A DNA stretch of 64,000 bases from IMG/VR virus record IMGVR_UViG_3300027255_000165, one strand, 5' to 3'. Below the pieces are notes generated by a model. The model saw only the letters and a program-made list of their open reading frames with translations. It searched no databases and was not told where the DNA came from. Origin of the DNA: a virus (Duplodnaviria > Caudoviricetes). The translations under genes were made by a program, and so were the position numbers. Shown in pieces: positions 4,477 to 62,881 of the stretch (its first letter is position 1; every line of letters begins with the position of its first letter).

Positions 4477-5052
4477 TTAGGCTTCTATACGAAATTGACC
4501 AACTTGTTTACTATATGGTTCATTTTCCCATAGATTAATTGCAATTGCATGTCGAGTTCCACTCGTTACTGGTTTAACTTCATGAACATAATTGCCTGCT
4601 CCAAAGATAATTAATCGATTAGGTTTAGCCTTTACGATCTCAGGTGGAGAGTTCACTCCGTCTGTGTAAATTGCTAATTCTCCACCTTCAAATTCTTGAC
4701 CTGCTGGATAATATACTGTTCCTATTAATGGAATCACAATAGCACCAGTTTTTTCAAACCAAGCTTCATCTTTATCGTAATGATTTCCAAGAATATTTTT
4801 GAATCCTTTTTCTGGATTAGCAGTTTGAATTCCAGTCCAATATTCAAATCCATTGATATTAAAGCTCTCATTGATTGGACAATTATGTCCCCAAATATAT
4901 TCAATCAATCTTTTCTTAATTGTATTAGCTGATGAATCCCACCATCCTCCCCAGTAATAATAAACACCGGGATCGGCAAAAAAAGTTTGATCAGCTGCAA
5001 TATCTTTAAGCAACATTTCATCTTTTACGAAGTTATCAATTACTACAATCAT
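4477..5052 (-). CDS. 2OG-Fe(II) oxygenase (prolyl-4-hydroxylase-like)
   Basis: HYD...GGEL...KPNRLIIF...HEVKPV...R; HxD...H facial triad plus the 2OG-binding Arg. Confidence 0.8.
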   Translation of the reverse strand: MIVVIDNFVKDEMLLKDIAADQTFFADPGVYYYWGGWWDSSANTIKKRLIEYIWGHNCPINESFNINGFEYWTGIQTANPEKGFKNILGNHYDKDEAWFEKTGAIVIPLIGTVYYPAGQEFEGGELAIYTDGVNSPPEIVKAKPNRLIIFGAGNYVHEVKPVTSGTRHAIAINLWENEPYSKQVGQFRIEA

Positions 5053-6826: not shown

Positions 6827-8035
6827 TTAGAACAAAGAAGTTGAGTAAATTAGATTACGATTAATGGACTGTAATCCAACTGACGTTAACAATCGATTCA
6901 AGGGATCAATGATTGATTTTTCAAACTGTGTTTCGTAATCAACCTGTGGCGCAAATTCATAAGGATGATCTCCTGGAAGGTATGCAAATACGTCTGAAAT
7001 TCCACCTGGATCAATTGCGTGATAGATCTTCAACTTCTCACCATTACCAATCAGTCGATACTTTGATTTGAATTTTTGGTTGTTGTTCAACAAGAAGTTG
7101 TAATATCCTGCAGCCTTTACGTTGGGCGGACACTTTAGACCAAACTGAAATTCAATATGATCATCAACAATATATCTTTCAATGTTATTTGTTCTCTTAT
7201 TGAACGCAATTTCATCGAGCTTGGCCATCTTGAACTGCTTCTTGGCTTCGCTTAAGAATGATGTAAGTTTTTGAAGGGTGTCTGCTGTAGGGCCAGCCTC
7301 TTCATTAAACATAATCTTAAGGGCCTCTGTTAATTTAGCCCTAGCAAACGTAGGAGTAGAGGATTGAATGGTATCAAATCCAATGGTCTTTACTTTACTC
7401 AGTGGCTTATGGCGTTCAGTCGTAGGAATCTTATCATCCCACGCAATATCCTGAATGTACTTTTTCTTACTCATCCAAATGCCAGAGTAGGCCACTGTTT
7501 CTAGCTCAAAAACTAAGAAGTTATCGGTGTTGGCTGCTACTGCATACTTTTCCATTGCTTTAACAATATACTCTTTAATTCTAAAATTGTATACTGCTAG
7601 GATGAATGTATCAATGGTCATCGGTTCTCCTGTCCATTCACATGTTTTATACATCTCATCGAACTGTACGTAGCACGAATCAGTATCAATGTAAATTACA
7701 GATGGGCGGTGGCATTGTCCTTTAACTGTTACGCCGATGTGTTCGTGTAACTTAGTGTCTTTATGCCAAAAATCATGAAAGTACTTATTTAATACTTGTT
7801 CAGAATACAGGATAGCGTTTTGACCCTGTAAGGTAATTGATTCGGCAATATCTAGATTAAAGAAGTGAAACCACTTATTACCAAATGCACCGTAAACTGA
7901 GTTTAGCGTTACCTTAACCGCTTGCTCATAAGCCGTAAACTTGGCGGACTCTTTTTGATAATAGTCCACCAAGCTTTGTAGCTCGTCTTTTCCTAGTCGA
8001 TCTAGGGAAGTATTCTTTAGTTCTTCTAAAGTCAT
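6827..8035 (-). CDS. gp43: Family B DNA polymerase, C-terminal subunit (fingers, palm and thumb; gp43B-like)
   Basis: Motif B KVTLNSVYG, motif C YIDTDS, KKKY; ends IYSTSLF. Lacks the exonuclease domain and motif A. Confidence 0.92.
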   Translation of the reverse strand: MTLEELKNTSLDRLGKDELQSLVDYYQKESAKFTAYEQAVKVTLNSVYGAFGNKWFHFFNLDIAESITLQGQNAILYSEQVLNKYFHDFWHKDTKLHEHIGVTVKGQCHRPSVIYIDTDSCYVQFDEMYKTCEWTGEPMTIDTFILAVYNFRIKEYIVKAMEKYAVAANTDNFLVFELETVAYSGIWMSKKKYIQDIAWDDKIPTTERHKPLSKVKTIGFDTIQSSTPTFARAKLTEALKIMFNEEAGPTADTLQKLTSFLSEAKKQFKMAKLDEIAFNKRTNNIERYIVDDHIEFQFGLKCPPNVKAAGYYNFLLNNNQKFKSKYRLIGNGEKLKIYHAIDPGGISDVFAYLPGDHPYEFAPQVDYETQFEKSIIDPLNRLLTSVGLQSINRNLIYSTSLF

Positions 8036-8784
8036 TATTCAGCCGTTTGACAAGTAGCAATCGTCAACAATGTGTTAGAGTCATTAGACTTCATAACAAC
8101 CTTATTTGCTGATACGTAAACTGCGTACTCTTCACGGTCTAGAAGATTCAAATACTTTTTGTAAAGGGTTGCAGAAGCTGATTGACCATTGTACTCTGAA
8201 CCTGCTTGATAGTTATAAGTCTTACCTTTAACTCGAACACCTTCGCCATTCGCTTTAATTTCAAACGTTTCATCTTTATCAAGATTAAACAGTGACTTGA
8301 TTTTACCAAGTGTGAAAGTGTCAAGCGTAAAATCAAATGCCGACCCTTCACGTGAAAAGATGCCTTCAATTTGAGAATCTGTAAGATCTTTGAAACCAAG
8401 AGAAGGTTCAGAACAAACTAGTGTGATTTCAAGTTCATTATTGAAAATCTTCATTGTAGATGATACATAGTCTTCTTCGTTCTCGATCAATTCGATCTCT
8501 GCTGAGATTTGATCTGAACCAAACATCTTAATTGCTTCAAGAACTTTGTTAGCGTCAAAGAAAGCAACTTTGATTTCCTTACCTTCAGGAAGATCACCAT
8601 CGACAGTGAACAACTCTGAAATTGGCTGTGAATGCATTTTAACTGCATCACGTTGTGGTAGATAAACCGCAGATTGAATGTTACCGTTACGCAACTTGAA
8701 GTACAGGAATGAATCGATTGACTTCAGGCGATTAACGAACTCTACGAATTGGTTCTGATCTACGCGATTGATTTGAATTTTCAT
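8035..8784 (-). CDS. gp45: Probable sliding clamp (gp45-like)
   Basis: 249 aa with an alternating beta/alpha pattern of clamp size. Its stop overlaps the polymerase start (TAATG). No diagnostic motif, so the call is mostly from size and context. Confidence 0.65.
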   Translation of the reverse strand: MKIQINRVDQNQFVEFVNRLKSIDSFLYFKLRNGNIQSAVYLPQRDAVKMHSQPISELFTVDGDLPEGKEIKVAFFDANKVLEAIKMFGSDQISAEIELIENEEDYVSSTMKIFNNELEITLVCSEPSLGFKDLTDSQIEGIFSREGSAFDFTLDTFTLGKIKSLFNLDKDETFEIKANGEGVRVKGKTYNYQAGSEYNGQSASATLYKKYLNLLDREEYAVYVSANKVVMKSNDSNTLLTIATCQTAE

Positions 8785-8844
8785 GCTTAATTATTTTCGT
8801 TTAGTTATTGTATAGTAAAATTGGTAATTTGTTTCACATAAAAA

Positions 8845-8863
8845 AACCCGCTCAAAGCGGGTT
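8845..8863 (-). terminator. Rho-independent terminator after nrdA
   Basis: AACCCGCT-3nt-AGCGGGTT stem followed by a T-run on the minus strand. Confidence 0.85.
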
Positions 8864-8874
8864 CTTAAATAATG

Positions 8875-10674
8875 CTATCCATCACAACTTAAGCAGTCAA
8901 TCATTGCTCGTTGAGCAATATCTCCTCTTAGCACTGATTCTGTTCGCATGTAGTATAATGTCTTAACGCCTTGCTTATATGCCTCTAGGTGAACTTGATT
9001 GATGTACTTGGGTTCAGCCTCGTTAGGGAAGGCAAGGTTAAGTGAAACCGCTTGGTCAATGTATTGTTGACGAATACCAGCTTGACGAACTAATTCCATT
9101 TGATTGATTTCCTTAAAGGTCAAAAATACATCTTTGAATGGAACCCACTTGTCTTTTTCAATTTCAGAAAGTTTATCATATTCCTTTTGATTGATGTATG
9201 TGAATTTCTCACCTTCTTTGGCGTACCACTTGTCAAGAGATTCTACTCCTTGAACCGATCCACCATCTATCAAAATTTGATCCCAAACTTCTTTAGAGTT
9301 TAGTTTGATCATGTTCAGTGCCGTGTCAAGGGTTGGGTTCTTGCGAATGAATGTACCTTTTGCAGTTTGCTCGGTGAAAACGTTGGCAGCCCATGGCTCA
9401 ATACCCGCTGATACGTTTCCTGACAGTTTTGAATTTGAAACTGTTGGGGCAATGGCACGAAGGTGTGTATTTCTCATACCTGTTCCAACACACCACAGTG
9501 GCTCGCCATACACTTTTGCCATGTCTCGTGAAGCTCGTTCCGATTCAATCTTAATTTGAGAGAAGATCTTACGTGTTTCAAATTGTGCGCCCATTGCGTC
9601 AAATGCAATACCTCTTTCTTGTAGGTACGTATGCCATCCAAGAACTCCAAGACCCAGTGCTCGACCTTTTTCAGCTGAACGAACAGAGTTCTCGAAGCCA
9701 CGCATGTATTTTGCACGTGTGATAAACTCTTCTAGGACGCCGTCTAGGAACCATGTTGCAGTGTAAACCAGATCAGTGTCCTTCCACTCGTCGTATTTTG
9801 CAAGGTTGATTGAAGACAAACAACAAACGAATGAGTGGTTCTCGTCAGTATGAAGAGTAATCTCAGAACAAATGTTGGTCATAAAAACCTTTAACTGATT
9901 GTTCTTGTAAGCATCTGGATTTTGACGGTTAACGTTACCTTTAAACATGATGTAAGGCTCGCCGGTCGTTCTACGCTTACGAAGAACTGCAGCCCATCGT
10001 TTACGGGCTTCCTTGTCTCCTTGTTCAAGCTTCATCATAAATGAATCTGAGACAACAACACATTGGTGCATATTTAGAGATTGACGATTAACGTCTCCTT
10101 TGGGTTCTCTAATTTCTAGCCACTCCCAAAAGTCACCGTGCTCGATATCGATATTAACTGATGCTGCACCTCGACGAACTGAACCCTGATTTGTCGCTAG
10201 AATCGATGAATCGTAGATCTTAATAAAAGGAACTACGCCATCTGACGTACCGTTCTGTGAAATGTTCGAACCTGCAGGACGAATCATATTAACTCCAATT
10301 CCAACTCCGCCACCGTGTTTTGCAAGTAGCATCATTTCAAGATTCTTGTTACCAATCTCTTGAATTGAATCGCCTACATCAATACCAAAACATGAAATTG
10401 GTAGACCTCTTTCGGTTCCAGTGTTTGAGAAAACTGGAGTTGCTAGGTTCAACCAACCCTTCCACATGTAATCAAAGAATTTACTAGCCAAATCAGGCTT
10501 ACGTAATCTCTTTGCTACAGTGGTAGCAACTCTCCAATATGCATCCTTTGGTGTTTCACCTTCTAAAAGATAACCTTTAGATACTGTTTTAACGTAAACT
10601 TCAGTGTTGGCCCATATTGGAAAGTCAACTCCAACTTCCCATCCTAAAAATTCACCATGATTAATTTCTTCCAT
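8875..10674 (-). CDS. nrdA: Class I ribonucleotide reductase alpha subunit, short form without ATP-cone
   Basis: PISCF, GGGVG, TNICSEI, GLGVLG, APTVSNS, KTLYY and C-terminal CLSCDG. Confidence 0.95.
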   Translation of the reverse strand: MEEINHGEFLGWEVGVDFPIWANTEVYVKTVSKGYLLEGETPKDAYWRVATTVAKRLRKPDLASKFFDYMWKGWLNLATPVFSNTGTERGLPISCFGIDVGDSIQEIGNKNLEMMLLAKHGGGVGIGVNMIRPAGSNISQNGTSDGVVPFIKIYDSSILATNQGSVRRGAASVNIDIEHGDFWEWLEIREPKGDVNRQSLNMHQCVVVSDSFMMKLEQGDKEARKRWAAVLRKRRTTGEPYIMFKGNVNRQNPDAYKNNQLKVFMTNICSEITLHTDENHSFVCCLSSINLAKYDEWKDTDLVYTATWFLDGVLEEFITRAKYMRGFENSVRSAEKGRALGLGVLGWHTYLQERGIAFDAMGAQFETRKIFSQIKIESERASRDMAKVYGEPLWCVGTGMRNTHLRAIAPTVSNSKLSGNVSAGIEPWAANVFTEQTAKGTFIRKNPTLDTALNMIKLNSKEVWDQILIDGGSVQGVESLDKWYAKEGEKFTYINQKEYDKLSEIEKDKWVPFKDVFLTFKEINQMELVRQAGIRQQYIDQAVSLNLAFPNEAEPKYINQVHLEAYKQGVKTLYYMRTESVLRGDIAQRAMIDCLSCDG

Positions 10675-10717
10675 TCTATAATTCTTATGTACTTTATACC
10701 GCTAGATTCAAATCTGT

Positions 10718-11728
10718 TTAAGAAAACAAATCGTCTTCATCCCAGTTTTCATCTTCACCAGCCTTTGAGTAATCCGTAGGGCGTACTGCGAAGAAGTCTG
10801 TATGCGTATGCCCGCCTGTTAAGTGATAGAACCAATCAAGTTCTGCGGCTGCTGATTCATCAAACTTAAAGATAGATTCATAACCAATTTCATTGAGCTT
10901 TTCATTGGCTCTTTTCTTGATGAACTCTTTTAAGTCTGATGCATTTAGATTTTCTAGATCGCCAGCTTCAAAAATCTTATCGATGTAATTCATTTCCATT
11001 TCGACCATAAGATGTGCAGCTTCTTCAACCTGTGATTGTACTGCATTTCTTAGGTCTGGATACTCTTCACACATTTGACGGAACAATTGACATCCCATTT
11101 TTGAGTGAAGAGATTCATCTCTAACTGACCATTTCATTTGCTGACCAATACCCTTTAAAAGGTTTCTCATTTGAAACGAGTATAGAACCGCAAATGAAGA
11201 ATATAGAGCTACTCCTTCGGCAAAGGCTGAAAAAATAGCCAATGAACGAGCAACGTCTTTTCGAGCTTCCGCTGACCTAGCCAAATCTTCATGGGTGTAA
11301 TCCGCTGTAGTACCCATCAAGAACTCAAAACGTGCAGCTGTTGAAGGCTCATGTAAGAATGCCTTAAAATCCTCAAGGCCTAATGTTTCGTTTAGATATG
11401 AATACGCTGTTGCATGGATGGTTTCTTGCGAACCAAACATCATTGCCATTTGCTTAATTTCATGTTTAGGGAACCAATTGGTTACCATGCCGGTCCAATA
11501 ATCAGAAACTGCACATTCAGTCTGTGCAAACCCCAATAAAATGTTACCGACCAAATTCTTTTCAGATGCTGAAAGATTTTCATTCCAATCTTTCACGTCG
11601 CCTTGCATCGAAATCTCCGTATGAAGCCAAAAGGCCTGTGCTTGTTTTAGCCATCCCTCTGTGTAATAAATTGGATATTCAAAGGGCTTAAATTCTATTC
11701 TTTCTTTAAATAATTGAGATTTTGACAT
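10718..11728 (-). CDS. nrdB: Class I ribonucleotide reductase beta subunit
   Basis: FW...E, QTECAV, ETIHATAY (radical Tyr), EGVALYSSF, DESLH and DFF. Confidence 0.95.
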   Translation of the reverse strand: MSKSQLFKERIEFKPFEYPIYYTEGWLKQAQAFWLHTEISMQGDVKDWNENLSASEKNLVGNILLGFAQTECAVSDYWTGMVTNWFPKHEIKQMAMMFGSQETIHATAYSYLNETLGLEDFKAFLHEPSTAARFEFLMGTTADYTHEDLARSAEARKDVARSLAIFSAFAEGVALYSSFAVLYSFQMRNLLKGIGQQMKWSVRDESLHSKMGCQLFRQMCEEYPDLRNAVQSQVEEAAHLMVEMEMNYIDKIFEAGDLENLNASDLKEFIKKRANEKLNEIGYESIFKFDESAAAELDWFYHLTGGHTHTDFFAVRPTDYSKAGEDENWDEDDLFS

Positions 11729-11773
11729 TTTTTAAAAAACGTATTTTTTTTACTATTGCTATTAGACGACAAA

Positions 11774-11804
11774 GGGTCCTTAATTCATTAGAACTGATGG
11801 ACCC
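11774..11804 (-). other. Hairpin in the nrdB 5' leader
   Basis: GGGTCC/GGACCC outer stem with an inner AGTTC/GAATT stem, in the 144-bp intergenic region. Confidence 0.5.
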
Positions 11805-11872
11805 GGGGTGTAACTTTACGATACATTGTATATATCATGGCTGTTACGAGGGGCTCTAAATATAATAACTGA

Positions 11873-13276
11873 TTAAAATCCTTTTAGTACCTTTTTAGCT
11901 TCTTCAGCTTTAGTGAAATACTCGTAAGATTTTGCCTTATATTCTTTACGCTGTGTGTAAAGATCTGAAAGAATTTGCTTCAATATTGAATCTTTCTTAT
12001 CGTACACAACTCCGTTAACACAGACGATTTCATCTTCATTCTTTCGTCTTTCAGGAATCTCAGACTTTGGAATGATTTCTTTATATGAGTCAGGTGAGAT
12101 GTTAAACTGTCGCATGATTGAGGGGTACAGTGAAGCAAAGTCAAATGCAGATACACCTTGATAGAAACCAACAACCGGTTCTTTAACATAAGCACCAGCA
12201 TATTGGCCATCCTTTGAACCTTCATCTCTTTGTTCTGATCCAATTCTCTTATTAAGGGCTGACATCTTACGTGCAATCAGAGCTTCCGTTACAGCAACTG
12301 GTGATGCAGCTTTATAGAGAGGCATCTTGGTGATTGAAGCCAGGGTCAATAGAACTTCCATTGACTTAAGCTGTTGATCTATATAATAGACTAGACATGA
12401 GTCAACTACGTTATAGAATACGTATTTTGTAAAGTCATTCTCGTAAAGGTCCTGTAAGGATCCATTATACTTGATCTTATTTGTCTTCAGTACTTGACCA
12501 GATACATAATCCAAAGCATTAGATTCTTTTACCTTGACCGTGCGATCGTACTTATCATACAATTGCATGTAATCTAAGATGCCGATGTGCAGCGGTCTAG
12601 AATCATTCTTATCAAGTGATTGAGTCATTGAGGCTTCTTTGATGTCAATCTGGAGACGCTTACATCGGTTAACGATATATTGCCAGTCATAGTTGATAAA
12701 GTTCCAGCCCGTCATCATCGGAAACTTAGGTAAGAACCGATAAATGAATGTTGCCACCATGTCATGTTCATTCTTAAACTGACGGTATTCAAAGGTCCAA
12801 TCCTGATCGAATTGTTTGAAGTATTCATTAGTGTCAGCTTCGATTTTCTTAACTTTTTCAAGAGAAAGTTCTTCTAATCCAAGAACAATGGCCTTACGTT
12901 CTGGCGTAATGATTGAGAATGTTAGGATTCGTGATTTGGCTTCTTCAGCTTTAGGGAAACCATCTACGATCTCGGTTTCAATATCGACAAAGTATGTACG
13001 AGGAAGATTGTATGCAAAGATTTCTTCTTTGTCTCGTTCGGGTAAATTGTCTAAGTAATAGATCAAAGAGAACTTATTGAACTGGCGAGCAGGACCCAAC
13101 TTGATAGGACGACCGTCCCAGTTTGTCAAGGTCTCATGTTTATAACGATCCATTGGATCGGTGATGTACCAGTTCTTAAATTGCTCAACAGGGTAGCGCT
13201 TGAAATTAACCTTGCCTTCCTTGTCGTAATATGAAATAATGACTTCTTTGTCTCTTTGTTCTACGTCTAATAACAT
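11873..13276 (-). CDS. gp43: Family B DNA polymerase, N-terminal subunit (3'-5' exonuclease plus motif A; gp43A-like)
   Basis: ExoI VDIET, ExoII GWNFINYD, ExoIII YNVVD, GAYVKEP and motif A DFASLYPSI. Ends after the first fingers helix. Confidence 0.92.
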   Translation of the reverse strand: MLLDVEQRDKEVIISYYDKEGKVNFKRYPVEQFKNWYITDPMDRYKHETLTNWDGRPIKLGPARQFNKFSLIYYLDNLPERDKEEIFAYNLPRTYFVDIETEIVDGFPKAEEAKSRILTFSIITPERKAIVLGLEELSLEKVKKIEADTNEYFKQFDQDWTFEYRQFKNEHDMVATFIYRFLPKFPMMTGWNFINYDWQYIVNRCKRLQIDIKEASMTQSLDKNDSRPLHIGILDYMQLYDKYDRTVKVKESNALDYVSGQVLKTNKIKYNGSLQDLYENDFTKYVFYNVVDSCLVYYIDQQLKSMEVLLTLASITKMPLYKAASPVAVTEALIARKMSALNKRIGSEQRDEGSKDGQYAGAYVKEPVVGFYQGVSAFDFASLYPSIMRQFNISPDSYKEIIPKSEIPERRKNEDEIVCVNGVVYDKKDSILKQILSDLYTQRKEYKAKSYEYFTKAEEAKKVLKGF

Positions 13277-13740
13277 TAGTATCCTCGGTTTTGACGATCG
13301 TGATTCTCTGCGTTCTTGGCCATGTAAAGGTTGACTACATCTTTTGAAGTCATACCGATTGAAATTGCGAAATTCATGAAGAAGTGCAAGCCATCAACCC
13401 ACTCATAGTAGAGTTCCAATCGATCTGCTTCACTAAGATCTTCAACTTTCATGTCAACTGCCTTAGCGTTATCCTTCTTCCAGTACTTCCATGCAGCTGA
13501 ACCAATTCCATCGTTAACACCTCCTAGTGAATCGAACATTTCGTTTAGTTCATCACTTAGAGCGTGCTTGTTGACCATCCAAAAGTCTGCAATCTGCTTA
13601 AGGGTCCAACCTGTGAAGTCAAATCCAAGGCGAGCTTGTAATTCTTTTTGCTTGTTGTAGATTAGACCAAAGGTGTCTTCAACGCCTGTGTAGAAATCTT
13701 CTACGTTAAGGTCTGAGCATTTATTATCTGTGTTTGCCAT
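13276..13740 (-). CDS. gp56: dCTPase/dUTPase (T4 gp56-like, dimeric all-alpha family)
   Basis: EWVDGLHFFMN and YMAKNAENHDRQNRGY match the gp56 C-terminal signature (KNAENFxRQxRGY). Confidence 0.85.
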   Translation of the reverse strand: MANTDNKCSDLNVEDFYTGVEDTFGLIYNKQKELQARLGFDFTGWTLKQIADFWMVNKHALSDELNEMFDSLGGVNDGIGSAAWKYWKKDNAKAVDMKVEDLSEADRLELYYEWVDGLHFFMNFAISIGMTSKDVVNLYMAKNAENHDRQNRGY

Positions 13741-16678: not shown

Positions 16679-17368
16679 TTAAAGGTGTTTAGTTTCATTG
16701 ACCCACTCGGGTTTTCCATTGGCGAGACCCATGATCTTGATGTGCTTGCCGCCTGCAATTCTCTTGGTCTTTTCAATTGCCTCTCTGTGAGTTCGAGCCC
16801 ACACGCAACAAACGAAATCTTGTCTTTTACTCCACGCTGATTGCATTTCACGCTCATCTTCGTAGTGTAAGTAATAGACCACAGTTGCTTTGGGTTCGTT
16901 TTGCTCTCGTTCAATCTTTTCAACCTCTTGACGAGCCCAATCGATGTACCAGTTCAAAACGTGATCTTCCGGATCAACTGAATAATCATACAGCTGGAAG
17001 ATCTTCCATGAATCGAGGGCGTACTTACCAACTCCTGTTAAATCTCCCAACCGATCCACAGGGATGGTGACAGGATCTTTGAAAGTGTCTGTTAATTCGA
17101 GCCACTCGCGGCTAAATTGTTTCCATTGTTTAGCTCGTCGATTATAGAATCCAAGAGATCGAATGATTTCAATGATCTCTTCATCTGATGCAAACATCAA
17201 TTCCTCAGGCGTTGGAAATCGATCAAAGAAGTTATACCGTACTTTTTCTACCTGTTTGTAGTTGGTTTGATTCAACATCATACAGACGATCATCATCTGC
17301 CATGGGTTGTCTCTAAGTTGTTCTTGGCGGGTGTTCCAGGGTGATGTCTCAAGCCTGATTCTCAGCAT
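16679..17368 (-). CDS. HhH-GPD DNA glycosylase, MBD4-like (G:T/G:U mismatch)
   Basis: SPWNTRQEQLRDNPWQMMIVCMMLNQT, FPTPE, SLGFYNRRAK, LTGVGKYALDSWKIF and PEDHVLNWYIDW closely follow MBD4 catalytic-domain motifs. No 4Fe-4S cysteines. Confidence 0.85.
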   Translation of the reverse strand: MLRIRLETSPWNTRQEQLRDNPWQMMIVCMMLNQTNYKQVEKVRYNFFDRFPTPEELMFASDEEIIEIIRSLGFYNRRAKQWKQFSREWLELTDTFKDPVTIPVDRLGDLTGVGKYALDSWKIFQLYDYSVDPEDHVLNWYIDWARQEVEKIEREQNEPKATVVYYLHYEDEREMQSAWSKRQDFVCCVWARTHREAIEKTKRIAGGKHIKIMGLANGKPEWVNETKHL

Positions 17369-17645
17369 CGTCTTCCTTTTTAAGATCTTCTAACTTCTTT
17401 TTCTCGGCTTCAACTTTATTTTCTAAGTCTTCAACTGTTGTTCCATTAAAAAGGGTTAGAATGACTGAATAGATTACCAATGGCCAAACCAAAATCATGT
17501 ATAGTCTTTCAGCCGTAGTGTATCGATTCTTTTCGTAGGTTTCTTCATCAACTACATTGCGAATGTTGTAATGCATTAGATCCATCAATAGTGAAAAGAA
17601 GATGCCTAGGCCAAGGTAGATTTGTGCGTATGTTAGAATACTCAT
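17349..17645 (-). CDS. Small membrane protein
   Basis: Two hydrophobic segments (IYLGLGIFFSLLM and LYMILVWPLVIYSVILTLF). Confidence 0.6.
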   Translation of the reverse strand: MSILTYAQIYLGLGIFFSLLMDLMHYNIRNVVDEETYEKNRYTTAERLYMILVWPLVIYSVILTLFNGTTVEDLENKVEAEKKKLEDLKKEDDAENQA

Positions 17646-19366: not shown

Positions 19367-20419
19367 TTAATTACTTAACGGTGCTTTGATTTGCTCATGA
19401 CATTGATATTCGAACAATCGAATATGGTCATGTGTCAAATCCTCTATTTTGCCAGAGATTGGCATGTCAACTGTGACGTATGGTAAGTCAAATGGCTCAC
19501 GTCTAATTTGCTGACTTGCCTGTGAAAGGTGATTGAGATACAAATGAGTATCTCCCAAACTTCCAATCAATTCATCTGGGATCATGTTAACGGCCTTACC
19601 AAGGATGGTAAGTAGAAGTCCGTACGACGCGATATTAAATGGTAGACCCAAGAACGTGTCAACTGAGCGTTGATTCCACATCAATGAAATCTTACGGCGA
19701 GGAAAATCTCTTTCATCAAGATCTTCATGTTCTAGGTTAACTGCATAATAATCATTGTGCCCGATTGATTCAGCCCAGCGCGATCTACGCTCTTTAATAC
19801 TCATTTCGGTGGTGTAAACTTGAAACCCATAGTGACACGGTGGAAGAACCATATTAGGCAACTGCTCAACGTTCCATGCATTAACCATCAATCTGCGAGA
19901 ATCTGGATTAGTCTTCAAGTCGTCAATCAACTGTTGGATCTGATCTATGCCTGGTTTTCTTTTGGTTTGAGTGCCTAAAATGTAATTGGTTTCATATTGA
20001 CTGCCCCATTCACGCCACTGATTACCATAGATTGGTCCTAACTCACCGTTTATTTCAGCAAATTGTTCATTGGTTTTGATAAGTTCAATGAACTCATCCA
20101 TAGACATTTGATTATTAGTCCTACTTTTGTATGCTTTATATGCATCACCGTTCCAAATGTTGCACCCATTTTCAACGAGGAACTTGATGTTAGTATCTCC
20201 CCGAAGGAACCATAGCAGTTCAGTCACCATTGTTTTCCACGCCATCTTTTTAGTGGTCAACAATGGAAATCCAGTTCGCATGTCGTGGCGAACCTGCCTT
20301 CCAAACAAGCTCTTTGTTCCAGTGCCGGTTCTGTCTTCTTTGATCTTACCGTTTTGAACGATATCGCTCAACAGTTTTTGATAGTCTAAATCTAACCAAT
20401 TTGTCATCATTTTACCCAA
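19367..20419 (-). CDS. thyA: Thymidylate synthase ThyA
   Basis: DRTGTGT, ELLWFLRG, GPIYG.QWR, SRR, catalytic LPPCH, QRSVD and PFNIASY (Asn specifies dUMP). The true start may be the ATG at 20410 or 20407. Confidence 0.95.
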   Translation of the reverse strand: MGKMMTNWLDLDYQKLLSDIVQNGKIKEDRTGTGTKSLFGRQVRHDMRTGFPLLTTKKMAWKTMVTELLWFLRGDTNIKFLVENGCNIWNGDAYKAYKSRTNNQMSMDEFIELIKTNEQFAEINGELGPIYGNQWREWGSQYETNYILGTQTKRKPGIDQIQQLIDDLKTNPDSRRLMVNAWNVEQLPNMVLPPCHYGFQVYTTEMSIKERRSRWAESIGHNDYYAVNLEHEDLDERDFPRRKISLMWNQRSVDTFLGLPFNIASYGLLLTILGKAVNMIPDELIGSLGDTHLYLNHLSQASQQIRREPFDLPYVTVDMPISGKIEDLTHDHIRLFEYQCHEQIKAPLSN

Positions 20420-60947: not shown

Positions 60948-61700
60948 TTAGTTAACTTTTACCTTTGTTGATTTGGTAGGTGGAATCTTAGCAGCAATAA
61001 CGGGAATTGAAGAAGTCAAATTCGTAGCCGCAGTTGCAGCTGCTGTAGCAGCGGTCCCCAACGGCACTGCAAGCGGAGCAGCACTCAAAATAGGAAGTGA
61101 GGCTGCCGCAACACCTGCCGATGCGAGAGCTGTCATGTTTGTTGATAGATTGGTTAGATCAATTGCTAGCTTTTGCAACGTGTTCTTAATTTCGTTAAGG
61201 GCATCTTCATTTTTATCACCTAACACGGCAGGTTCTTCTGAACCTCCACCCATTCCAACGAGATGCAATAGATCAGCGGCCTGAAATAGGCCTTCACCGG
61301 CTGAACCAATCAACTTAACACCCTCTGATGAGTTCCAATACAGTTGCATTCTCGATGGGTCATAGAAAAGTGAGACCACTCCCATTGCACCATTCGCAGA
61401 TACCATGTCTGAAACTTCTTGACGTGCCTTAGCCTGAAAGAAATAAACTGGAGTGTATAAGTTTCCGTTATCAAATCTAACAGAAACAATGTCACCTACG
61501 GCTGGAACCGCAAATTGACCATGTGAATCATTAGAACCGCAAAGGGCCCATGGAAGATCTTCATCAGGAATTAGATCAAACTTACCAAAAATGCGTATCC
61601 TACAACGGCCCTGATTTGATGGATCTTCGTTATTAACGATTTCTCCTAACCAGTGCGAATCTCTTAAATTATCTTGAAAAAGCTCTTTAATAGAGTCCAT
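60948..61700 (-). CDS. gp5: Baseplate hub / spike protein with gp5 N-terminal OB-fold
   Basis: WLGEIVNNEDPSNQGRCRIRIFG...LPWA...VPAVGDIVSVRFDNGNLYTPVYF; no lysozyme domain. Confidence 0.8.
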   Translation of the reverse strand: MDSIKELFQDNLRDSHWLGEIVNNEDPSNQGRCRIRIFGKFDLIPDEDLPWALCGSNDSHGQFAVPAVGDIVSVRFDNGNLYTPVYFFQAKARQEVSDMVSANGAMGVVSLFYDPSRMQLYWNSSEGVKLIGSAGEGLFQAADLLHLVGMGGGSEEPAVLGDKNEDALNEIKNTLQKLAIDLTNLSTNMTALASAGVAAASLPILSAAPLAVPLGTAATAAATAATNLTSSIPVIAAKIPPTKSTKVKVN

Positions 61701-62881
61701 TATTCGTAGTTGTTTCCAAGGTTAGACTTCGTGTTAGCTGCTTCGTTTAGATTATTTATCATTGGAAATATGGAAGCAATCGAACCCTGTCTTAATGCCG
61801 CTCCGACGGTGGCACCTTCAGCTCCGAATATGTTTGTCACAATTGACTGTTTAAAGGAAGTTGCGGCATCTTTTGCAATGGCCTCACTCTGTCCAAATAT
61901 GTTATCTACAGCTCCTCCTAAACCGCCTGCATAGCTGTCAACTTGATTAATGGCCTGTTGATATGCCTGTTCAAGATCACTACCATATACGTTGACAGGC
62001 TTGCTAATAGCGTTTAGTGGATTATTCTCTCTAATAGCACCTGTTAAACTGTCAATTGCACTGTTAGTTATTTGACCAACGTCCTGCGACAATCTATCAC
62101 CGACACCCTGGATTTTAGTTCTAGCGTCACTATCACTGCTTACGCCTAAATCACCTGTACTTTCTGTCATCAACCCCTGTAAATATGAAGTTGCAGTTTT
62201 CTTAATAGTTTCGTAACTAATTTCAATCTTAGGTGAAGGGCTTTCAGGCGCTGCGTTGCTTAATGTTTCAAATGTTTCTTTAGCAGACTTAATATTGAAC
62301 TCGCAGAAATTAAATTCATACTGAAACAACGGCTTAAAGTCACCTGATATTTCAGCGTTCTTTGTTTCAGATCCAAGCAAACCCTTTTTGAATTCTGTGT
62401 TAATGTCTCTAATCTCAGAAACCATAATCCACATTCTAAATCCTCTAATATTCTTTGGTAGAACCTGGGTCCATGCTGCAAAATCATAAACCGAATCCCT
62501 ATATAAATCCATCAAACCAGAAATTGCAAGATTGATTGATTCATTGCAAGTGATAGTTAGTTTGGCCTCATCACCTCCCCAATAAGGCTCAGTCATGTTA
62601 TAGTCTAAAACCCTTGTCATTCCATCTAATGAAACCCAATACCATGGCATTTCACGATTAATCAAGAGCATGGTATCAACAAATCTTTCAAGCTTATCGG
62701 CTCTTTCAGTTTCTTTATAATGCTCTCTTAGAGTTTTAACGGCAATATCTTTATTAAAAAGAGGAGACGTAGTATCAAATAAAATTGTAAAGCTCAAATA
62801 CGTAGGATCTTGATAAGGGTTCTTTGAACTCTTACCTAGTAATCCTTTTCTAAATTGTATTTGATTTGTACCAGTTGCCAT
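61700..62881 (-). CDS. Baseplate / tail-tube initiator-like protein (gp48/gp54 family candidate)
   Basis: DPTYLSFTILFD, LTITCNESI and YEFNFCEF tube-fold patterns; position between hub and spike. Confidence 0.5.
   Translation of the reverse strand: MATGTNQIQFRKGLLGKSSKNPYQDPTYLSFTILFDTTSPLFNKDIAVKTLREHYKETERADKLERFVDTMLLINREMPWYWVSLDGMTRVLDYNMTEPYWGGDEAKLTITCNESINLAISGLMDLYRDSVYDFAAWTQVLPKNIRGFRMWIMVSEIRDINTEFKKGLLGSETKNAEISGDFKPLFQYEFNFCEFNIKSAKETFETLSNAAPESPSPKIEISYETIKKTATSYLQGLMTESTGDLGVSSDSDARTKIQGVGDRLSQDVGQITNSAIDSLTGAIRENNPLNAISKPVNVYGSDLEQAYQQAINQVDSYAGGLGGAVDNIFGQSEAIAKDAATSFKQSIVTNIFGAEGATVGAALRQGSIASIFPMINNLNEAANTKSNLGNNYE

Follow-up and report, generated by a model that had tools for sequence, protein, structure and literature searches.

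Gene and protein

The stretch of viral DNA analysed here (IMG/VR record IMGVR_UViG_3300027255_000165, Caudoviricetes; 64,000 nucleotides, called the window below) contains a gene for a 229-residue protein, composed of an N-terminal HhH-GPD DNA glycosylase domain of the MBD4 type and a C-terminal module (Table 1). The catalytic domain adds one more member to a known family. What is new is that this domain is fused to an undescribed module and is present in some closely related phages but absent from others. A literature search, which was incomplete in its coverage, yielded no paper on a phage MBD4-type glycosylase, and PHROGs contained no family matching the protein.

Five independent metagenome contigs from ENA and JGI assemblies carry the identical gene call, and the exact 229-residue protein is listed in 307 blocks of the indexed collection. 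The gene neighbourhood was the same on every contig read. The phage is present in freshwater or estuarine viromes, for example in the samples from which L003, L005 and L100 derive. The AlphaFold2 model of the whole protein, built on 63 family members, reached a mean predicted local distance difference test score (pLDDT) of 94.8 and a predicted template modelling score of 0.81. A complex prediction of residues 1-151 against residues 152-229 scored 0.00, a value that gives no verdict either way. In a preliminary description of this DNA, made from the sequence alone, a C-terminal extension of about 70 residues had been noted. This extension is real: it comprises residues 152-229, i.e. 78 residues, and is conserved across the family.

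Table 1. Features of the glycosylase gene and of neighbouring genes in the window
Feature	Position	Strand	Evidence or remark
Whole gene, MBD4-type HhH-GPD glycosylase domain plus C-terminal module	16679..17368	(-)	ATG start, 229 residues
Clusterless HhH-GPD glycosylase domain, MBD4 type, residues 1-151	16916..17368	(-)	phmmer, Foldseek, Pfam
Conserved beta-beta-alpha-beta module, residues 152-229 plus stop	16679..16915	(-)	AlphaFold2 prediction, stand-alone homologs
Codon of Asp135 (PEDH motif), aligned with human MBD4 catalytic Asp560	16964..16966	(-)	phmmer alignment
Codons 112-116 (GVGKY), helix-hairpin-helix hairpin and Tyr116 (MBD4 Tyr540)	17021..17035	(-)	hairpin glycines G112 and G114 and Y116 invariant in the family
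Polymorphic 478-nt segment, codons 1-159, absent from L114/L115	16892..17369	(-)	blastn, window against L114
Upstream predicted membrane protein, 98 residues, end overlapping the glycosylase start by 20 nt	17349..17645	(-)	conserved in L003, L005, L009 and L114
Downstream DUF6378 gene, 97 residues	16370..16663	(-)	PF19905; repeatedly found beside the glycosylase or the stand-alone module
AGT-like DNA alpha-glucosyltransferase, 406 residues	13752..14972	(-)	Pfam AGT 1.9e-22; PHROG alpha-glucosyltransferase 8.1e-73
All-alpha NTP pyrophosphatase, 154 residues, candidate equivalent of the T4 gp56 dCTPase	13276..13740	(-)	Pfam dUTPase_2 7.1e-9, C-terminal stretch only; PHROG NTP pyrophosphohydrolase 6.6e-21
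True thymidylate synthase, uracil-type Asn in PFNIASY	19367..20419	(-)	Pfam 3.5e-92; PDB thymidylate synthases 3e-69

Family placement of the glycosylase domain

Residues 8-153 of the phage protein matched human MBD4 with an E value of 2.1e-21 in a phmmer search of the PDB sequences, and the 15 best matches were all MBD4 glycosylase domains (2e-21 to 3e-19). These were followed by endonuclease III (7e-11), MutY (5e-7) and the archaeal G:T glycosylase 1KEA (3.5e-6). The Pfam HhH-GPD family was matched with 5.8e-13. Three motif pairs, which had been quoted in the preliminary description as resembling MBD4, were all found in the HMMER alignment to the human protein (SPWNTRQEQLRDNPW in the phage and SPFNLVQETLFHDPW in human MBD4, GVGKYALDSWKIF and GIGKYGNDSYRIF, PEDHVLNWYIDW and PEDHKLNKYHDW).

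Comparison of the predicted structure with the PDB by Foldseek placed MBD4 chains at all of the ranks 1-16 (E about 1e-9 to 8e-8, template modelling (TM) score by target 0.83-0.89), whereas MutY, Nth and the archaeal glycosylase MIG reached E values of about 4e-4 and TM scores of about 0.45. The fold of the mammalian MBD4 glycosylase domain (PDB 4E9E, 4EVV, 4EW0, 1NGN, 3IHO, 7KZ0) is thus shared by the phage protein, with 34-36% identity over about 145 residues. With Nth, MutY and MIG it has the HhH-GPD superfamily in common, and the glutamine at its helix-plugging position is found in Nth and MutY, too, but the matches to these enzymes are weaker and the phage protein lacks their Fe-S cysteines. 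It contains only three cysteines (C29, C187, C188), so that it cannot hold a four-cysteine Fe-S cluster, whose absence had been noted in the preliminary description. Mammalian MBD4 has neither such a cluster nor a lyase lysine either.

An exhaustive HMMER search among 1.84 billion representatives detected 2149 relatives at E <=1e-3. They sort into one two-domain cluster, many single-domain proteins of 130-170 residues and long proteins with a C-terminal glycosylase domain. One of the long eukaryote-like relatives (P0189) carries a methyl-CpG-binding domain according to Pfam and is therefore a genuine MBD4-type eukaryotic protein. Pfam detected no methyl-CpG-binding domain in the phage protein, whose glycosylase domain is N-terminal instead and followed by the 78-residue module. 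No MutY-type C-terminal domain was detected, and the structure libraries gave no such match for the module.

In a quick maximum-likelihood tree of 168 domains (143 columns), in which deep relations are weakly resolved, Nth and MutY of E. coli are placed outside the family, each on a very long branch. The two-domain proteins group together (support 86) within a well-supported viral clade (98), alongside single-domain viral forms. Eukaryote-like proteins are found in two other subclades, and the homolog of phage Xp12 in a further clade of short proteins. Profile search and phylogeny within the HhH-GPD superfamily, suggested as a check in the preliminary description, hence do not group the protein with Nth or MutY. 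Sequence, predicted structure and the tree position of Nth and MutY all bear out the MBD4-like catalytic domain described there, and on these grounds the domain is assigned to the MBD4 family and not to Nth or MutY. The label "eukaryote-type" is a misnomer, however, because the protein falls into a viral subclade of this family of 2149 clusters, whereas the long eukaryote-like proteins are located in separate ones.

Active-site residues

The roles of single residues were taken from two papers on MBD4 (PMC3479182, PMC3458566), and our human numbering reproduces the residues named in both. In MBD4, Gln449 recognises the flipped base at N3 and O2, the Q449A variant being inactive, and Tyr540 contacts O2 (PMC3479182, PMC3458566); Asp560 is the catalytic residue (PMC3479182). 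All three are retained in the phage protein, as seen directly in the alignment. Gln15, the counterpart of Gln449, is conserved in viral and short forms, and Tyr116 (human Tyr540) is conserved across the family. Asp135 (human Asp560) is invariant in the 63-member family, present as Asp in 135 of 140 grouped relatives and nearly invariant in the 168 wider relatives.

The column of Tyr116 contains Ser in MutY and, in E. coli Nth, a Lys that we take to be the lyase nucleophile. With Tyr116 in place of this lysine a monofunctional glycosylase is to be expected. Glycosylase chemistry and a preference for uracil-type bases are well supported as predictions from these residues and from the analogy to MBD4.

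Other residues around the pocket differ between the two proteins. Phe74 of the phage enzyme corresponds to Leu508, presumably the wedge residue of MBD4. Arg468, the finger that fills the helix gap after the base has been flipped out, Gly471, with its Cα 4.0 Å from the thymine methyl group, and Lys562, which contacts the hydroxyl group of 5-hydroxymethyluracil (5hmU) (PMC3479182, PMC3458566), are represented by Gln34, Tyr37 and Val137, respectively. The column of Tyr37 is variable family-wide, with Trp in Xp12. In the finger column Gln, Leu, Arg and Lys occur, Arg or Lys mainly in eukaryote-like proteins. This variation indicates that the arginine finger is a trait of the animal enzymes and not of the whole family.

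Presence and absence of the glycosylase domain

The two viral loci L114 and L115 are collinear with the window and encode a module of 77 residues with 85% identity, without the glycosylase domain. Direct comparison of the window and L114 by blastn showed 92.8% identity down to position 17370 and 83% from position 16891 on, with 16 nt between these points in L114. Two T4-like relatives with the same gene order (L109 and L116) contain the module alone in the slot of the glycosylase gene, where it adjoins DUF6378, an alpha-glucosyltransferase or T4 beta-glucosyltransferase, an NTP pyrophosphatase and the family-B DNA polymerase (PolB). In a further locus (L118) a protein of 128 residues joins the first approximately 20 glycosylase residues to the module, i.e. 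the core has been deleted. This remnant lies between a thymidylate synthase (TS) homolog with Asp at the specificity position (Asp-type) and a pair of tandem paralogs described below. The glycosylase domain is an accessory that was gained or lost, fused in frame to a resident 78-residue module.

The C-terminal module

Folded alone with 41 homologs, the module was predicted by AlphaFold2 as a confident beta-beta-alpha-beta unit (pLDDT 91.9). It belongs to no Pfam family and carries no informative source name. Foldseek gave no significant match in the PDB (best E 0.32), in the AFDB clusters (best E 0.037) or in BFVD (best E 0.079). The best hit of VIA-align wide was the ribosomal protein eL20/LX with a Z score of 6.2, which is below the tool's own meaningful level. 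A search of the Atlas by shape returned only the module's own family, and Atlas features yielded no usable match.

In 42 of 80 viral loci the module is fused to the glycosylase, and in three loci it is a separate open reading frame (ORF) 2.5 kb downstream of it. Stand-alone module proteins form about 27 clusters. Across the family, the isoelectric point of the module ranges from 5.2 to 9.5. From the models and this distribution it appears to be an undescribed small domain with a confidently predicted fold, which occurs fused, split or alone beside pyrimidine-modification genes. Since the module is kept where the glycosylase domain has been lost, it should have a function of its own, tied to pyrimidine-modification neighbourhoods. 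Tentatively, and with more doubt than confidence, we suggest that it might be a new domain which recognises DNA with hydroxymethylated or glucosylated pyrimidines, or else part of the modification machinery. The locus would then have the module as its resident gene under selection, with the glycosylase as an exchangeable addition.

Predicted cytosine modification in the phage

The window stems from an uncultured phage, whose replication and recombination genes are of the T4 type (UvsW, gp32, UvsX/RecA, DnaB-like helicase, Mre11/Rad50-like proteins, ribonucleotide reductase and a split PolB). When the region was compared with GenBank phages by megablast no match emerged, and the best match of UvsW was an uncultured phage of 462 kb with 56% identity, so that there is no close GenBank relative. 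An AGT-like gene lies 1.7 kb downstream of the glycosylase gene and is followed by the gene of the all-alpha NTP pyrophosphatase (Table 1).

The thymidylate synthase encoded in the window was considered as a cytosine-modifying enzyme and ruled out by its uracil-type Asn. This protein of 350 residues contains two insertions compared to canonical ThyA (about residues 91-118 and 206-242), by which its PDB alignments are broken up into three blocks.

Contigs of the same phage were followed past the end of the window via identical proteins. About 21.6 kb past this end, a second TS homolog of 295 residues was found (L101:2961-3848), with Asp at the specificity position aligned with the T4 motif. Its best PDB match was the T4 dCMP hydroxymethylase (6e-15) compared to 1.8e-10 for the best thymidylate synthase. 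Both this 295-residue homolog and a protein identical to the product of the window gene 61700-62881 are encoded on the ENA contig k141_268857. Genes for a dCMP deaminase, UvdE, a 5'-nucleotidase and a DNA ligase are located between the end of the window and the hydroxymethylase homolog, which is about 68 kb away from the glycosylase gene in this phage. The same contigs (L101:1-7918 and L099/L100, about 5-23 kb past the window end) also hold an Eco57I-like methyltransferase-like protein, a ClpP protease and a ClpB-like AAA+ protein.

A T4-style gene set for glucosyl-hydroxymethylcytosine is therefore nearly complete, and the DNA of the phage appears to contain this base. The cytosine-modification locus that the preliminary description had placed near the glycosylase is indeed present, in the form of the AGT-like and pyrophosphatase genes. 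With the dCMP hydroxymethylase homolog found by following the contigs, and the dCMP deaminase in addition, its proposal of a modified-cytosine genome has become well founded.

Distribution in other viruses

Among 50,697 GenBank phage records, 22 contained a match to the glycosylase, and 13 of these are Xp12-group phages of Xanthomonas, Stenotrophomonas and Janthinobacterium. The DNA of Xp12 contains 5-methylcytosine (5mC) (PMC7653180). The Xp12 homolog (QNN97216.1, annotated as hypothetical) is encoded directly upstream of a hydrolase/NTPase, an Asp-type TS homolog, a dCMP deaminase and DHFR. This arrangement is repeated in Donnerlittchen (USN14433.1, annotated as endonuclease III). The stand-alone proteins of this group belong to the same family as the window protein (about 32-34% identity, E 1e-18). 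These phages replace or modify cytosine, as is predicted for the window phage, and the gene adjoins nucleotide-modification genes. In contrast to the window protein, those of the Xp12 group are single-domain proteins of about 160 residues without the C-terminal module and fall into a different subclade. Furthermore, their gene is located inside a dCMP-methylation cluster, whereas the hydroxymethylase gene of the window phage is distant. S-TIM54 was considered as a case with the two modules split and was rejected, as it has a single domain only and the seeming extension of the match proved spurious.

In IMG/VR, 155 stretches encoding relatives were confirmed. The glycosylase, which had been described as unusual in phages, is hence rare in cultured phages but common in viral metagenomes. 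Of 20 large glycosylase-bearing IMG/VR records, eight contain TS-family genes; seven of these are Asp-type, two of them not more than 2 kb from the glycosylase (G004, G009). The other 12 showed no TS-family match, most of them being only 19-42% complete. As another source of modified cytosine, a C5-methyltransferase or TET/JBP enzyme was searched for in the glycosylase-bearing records and none was found.

The Asp-type TS homolog of one complete viral genome of 183 kb (G003:C1:44171-44842, L090) has one or two TAA codons inside the match. A pseudogene, a pair of separate genes or a different genetic code could account for this.

Neighbouring genes

The gene encoding DUF6378 adjoins the glycosylase gene in 13 IMG/VR viral loci and is present in L109, L114, L116 and L118, too. 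It is the most faithful neighbour across several phage lineages; its PHROG label "phosphofructokinase" looks unreliable.

In 41 viral loci the two-domain glycosylase is followed by tandem paralogs of about 390 and 334 residues with invariant Asp, Glu and His columns (representatives L019:812-1984 and L031:7410-8414). The pair also follows the core-deleted gene of L118 (L118:5380-7746), near the Asp-type TS homolog. The protein of 390 residues (L010-L050) was rejected as a glucosyltransferase, with an E value of 2.2 against the AGT of the window in BLASTP and no PDB match. The Atlas places the paralog pair near clusters of 5-hydroxymethyldeoxyuridine (5-hmdU) kinase, amino-acid:DNA transferase and aGPT-pyrophosphorylase (score 0.97), a placement that Pfam hidden Markov models (HMMs) did not confirm. 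No hypermodification family was revealed when 20 members were scanned with Pfam and five records were searched in all six frames with PF18724/PF18723. We regard the pair as a candidate for a new cytosine-hypermodification module.

Further regions of the window contain genes of note. The segment 21394-28484 (-) comprises conserved ORFs of 230, 335, 339, 392 and 429 residues around a protein of 621 residues with a cytidylyltransferase-like C-terminal part, and several ORFs of this block are syntenic with the glycosylase in the phages L082-L088. A 2OG-Fe(II) oxygenase of 191 residues (4477-5052, -) is encoded between the DnaB-like helicase and the UvsX-like recombinase. The PolB gene is split (6827-13276, -) into an N-terminal half (11873-13276) and a C-terminal half (6827-8035). 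Both ribonucleotide reductase subunits (8875-11728) and an ORF of 249 residues (8035-8784) lie between the halves, in the same order on all related contigs.

Proposed function and alternative explanations

Deamination of a 5-substituted cytosine leads to T or 5hmU opposite G, and a uracil-DNA glycosylase is not expected to remove either of them. The phage protein is probably a monofunctional, Fe-S-free MBD4-type glycosylase that removes deaminated (modified) cytosine opposite G, and it would be an accessory, not essential to the modified-DNA lifestyle. We infer the following course, including the substrate, the direction in which repair proceeds, the enzymes acting downstream and the chemistry of the DNA itself, from MBD4 and from the gene content. 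The GVGKY hairpin would bind the DNA backbone, as in MBD4. T, U or 5hmU mispaired with G would be flipped into the pocket, Gln34 filling the resulting gap and Phe74 acting as the wedge. The backbone of residue 14, Gln15 and Tyr116 would read O4, N3 and O2 of the base, thereby excluding cytosines, and Asp135 would catalyse glycosidic bond cleavage. The abasic site may then be passed on to an apurinic/apyrimidinic endonuclease (UvdE of the phage or enzymes of the host) and to PolB and the ligase of the phage. As its main natural substrate in the phage we would expect the base that arises opposite G when a modified cytosine is deaminated.

Several observations weigh against this proposal. The glycosylase domain is dispensable: L114 and L115, with flanks of 83-93% identity, lack exactly codons 1-159, the module stands alone in L109 and L116, and only a remnant is left in L118. 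The 22 matching records of cultured phages include neither an Escherichia phage nor any other T-even phage. Two complete viral genomes with homologs (G002, 174 kb; G006, 284 kb) contain no TS-family enzyme, C5-methyltransferase or TET/JBP that could be found. The MBD4 residues flanking C5 are exchanged in the phage protein, as is the finger, and in view of these differences the substrate range, including any tolerance of a glucosyl group, is not simply transferable from MBD4. The glucosyl-hydroxymethylcytosine itself is deduced only from genes. In particular, the term "dedicated repair enzyme" used in the preliminary description is too strong, because phages nearly identical to this one lack exactly the glycosylase domain; the cultured T-even phages and the two complete genomes without a detectable cytosine-modifying enzyme point in the same direction.

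Alternatively, the protein might be a general housekeeping glycosylase of large phages for G:U and G:T mismatches, with no functional tie to cytosine modification, the proximity of the genes reflecting a clustering of nucleotide-metabolism genes. The genomes G002 and G006 would fit this explanation, as would the 12 of 20 large records without a TS-family match and the distance of about 68 kb to the hydroxymethylase gene. However, most of the records without a match are incomplete, the true homologs in cultured phages are almost confined to the 5mC-containing Xp12 group with the gene inside a dCMP-modification cluster, and Asp-type TS homologs are found within 2 kb of it in G004 and G009, while one directly adjoins the remnant in L118. 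We consider such a purely general role unlikely, although it is the main rival to the proposed function.

Less probable still is a role in quality control or editing within the modification pathway instead of deamination repair, in which the enzyme would remove wrongly modified or unmodified pyrimidines or intermediates from phage DNA, with the module giving specificity. The recurrence of the module beside AGT or the T4 beta-glucosyltransferase, the NTP pyrophosphatase, the Asp-type TS homolog and the paralog pair is in line with such an activity, and so is the remodelling of the pocket residues near C5 compared to MBD4. On the other hand, Gln15 and Tyr116, the readers of the Watson-Crick edge, are conserved and exclude cytosine derivatives in MBD4. 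Moreover, the module is also found without any glycosylase domain, and the link to hypermodification, i.e. the Atlas placement of the paralog pair, was not confirmed by the HMM searches. It is highly improbable that the protein is a weapon or counter-defence, the glycosylase attacking host DNA or the module inhibiting a host repair or defence protein like p56 of phi29: the module can stand alone and weakly resembles phi29 p56 (Z 2.8-2.9), T7 Gp2 (Z 2.8-3.2) and RNA polymerase epsilon (Z 3.6), but these Z scores are far below the tool's own meaningful level, MBD4-type enzymes act on rare mismatches and not on bulk DNA, and with the range of isoelectric points given above the module lacks the consistent acidity expected of a DNA mimic.

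Biological significance

For phages with 5-substituted cytosine, a viral MBD4 branch placed within or close to cytosine-modification loci would offer a simple solution to the repair problem that deamination of this base poses. The near-identical phages with and without the glycosylase domain represent a natural experiment for the C-to-T mutation load in the wild, and enzymes of this MBD4-type family could serve to detect deaminated modified cytosines. The module, as a new domain, follows pyrimidine-modification genes across unrelated phage lineages and may be a reader of modified DNA or an accessory. If it is indeed such a reader, the protein would be a phage counterpart of the MBD4 design of a modification reader plus a mismatch glycosylase, of independent origin and with an unrelated reader.

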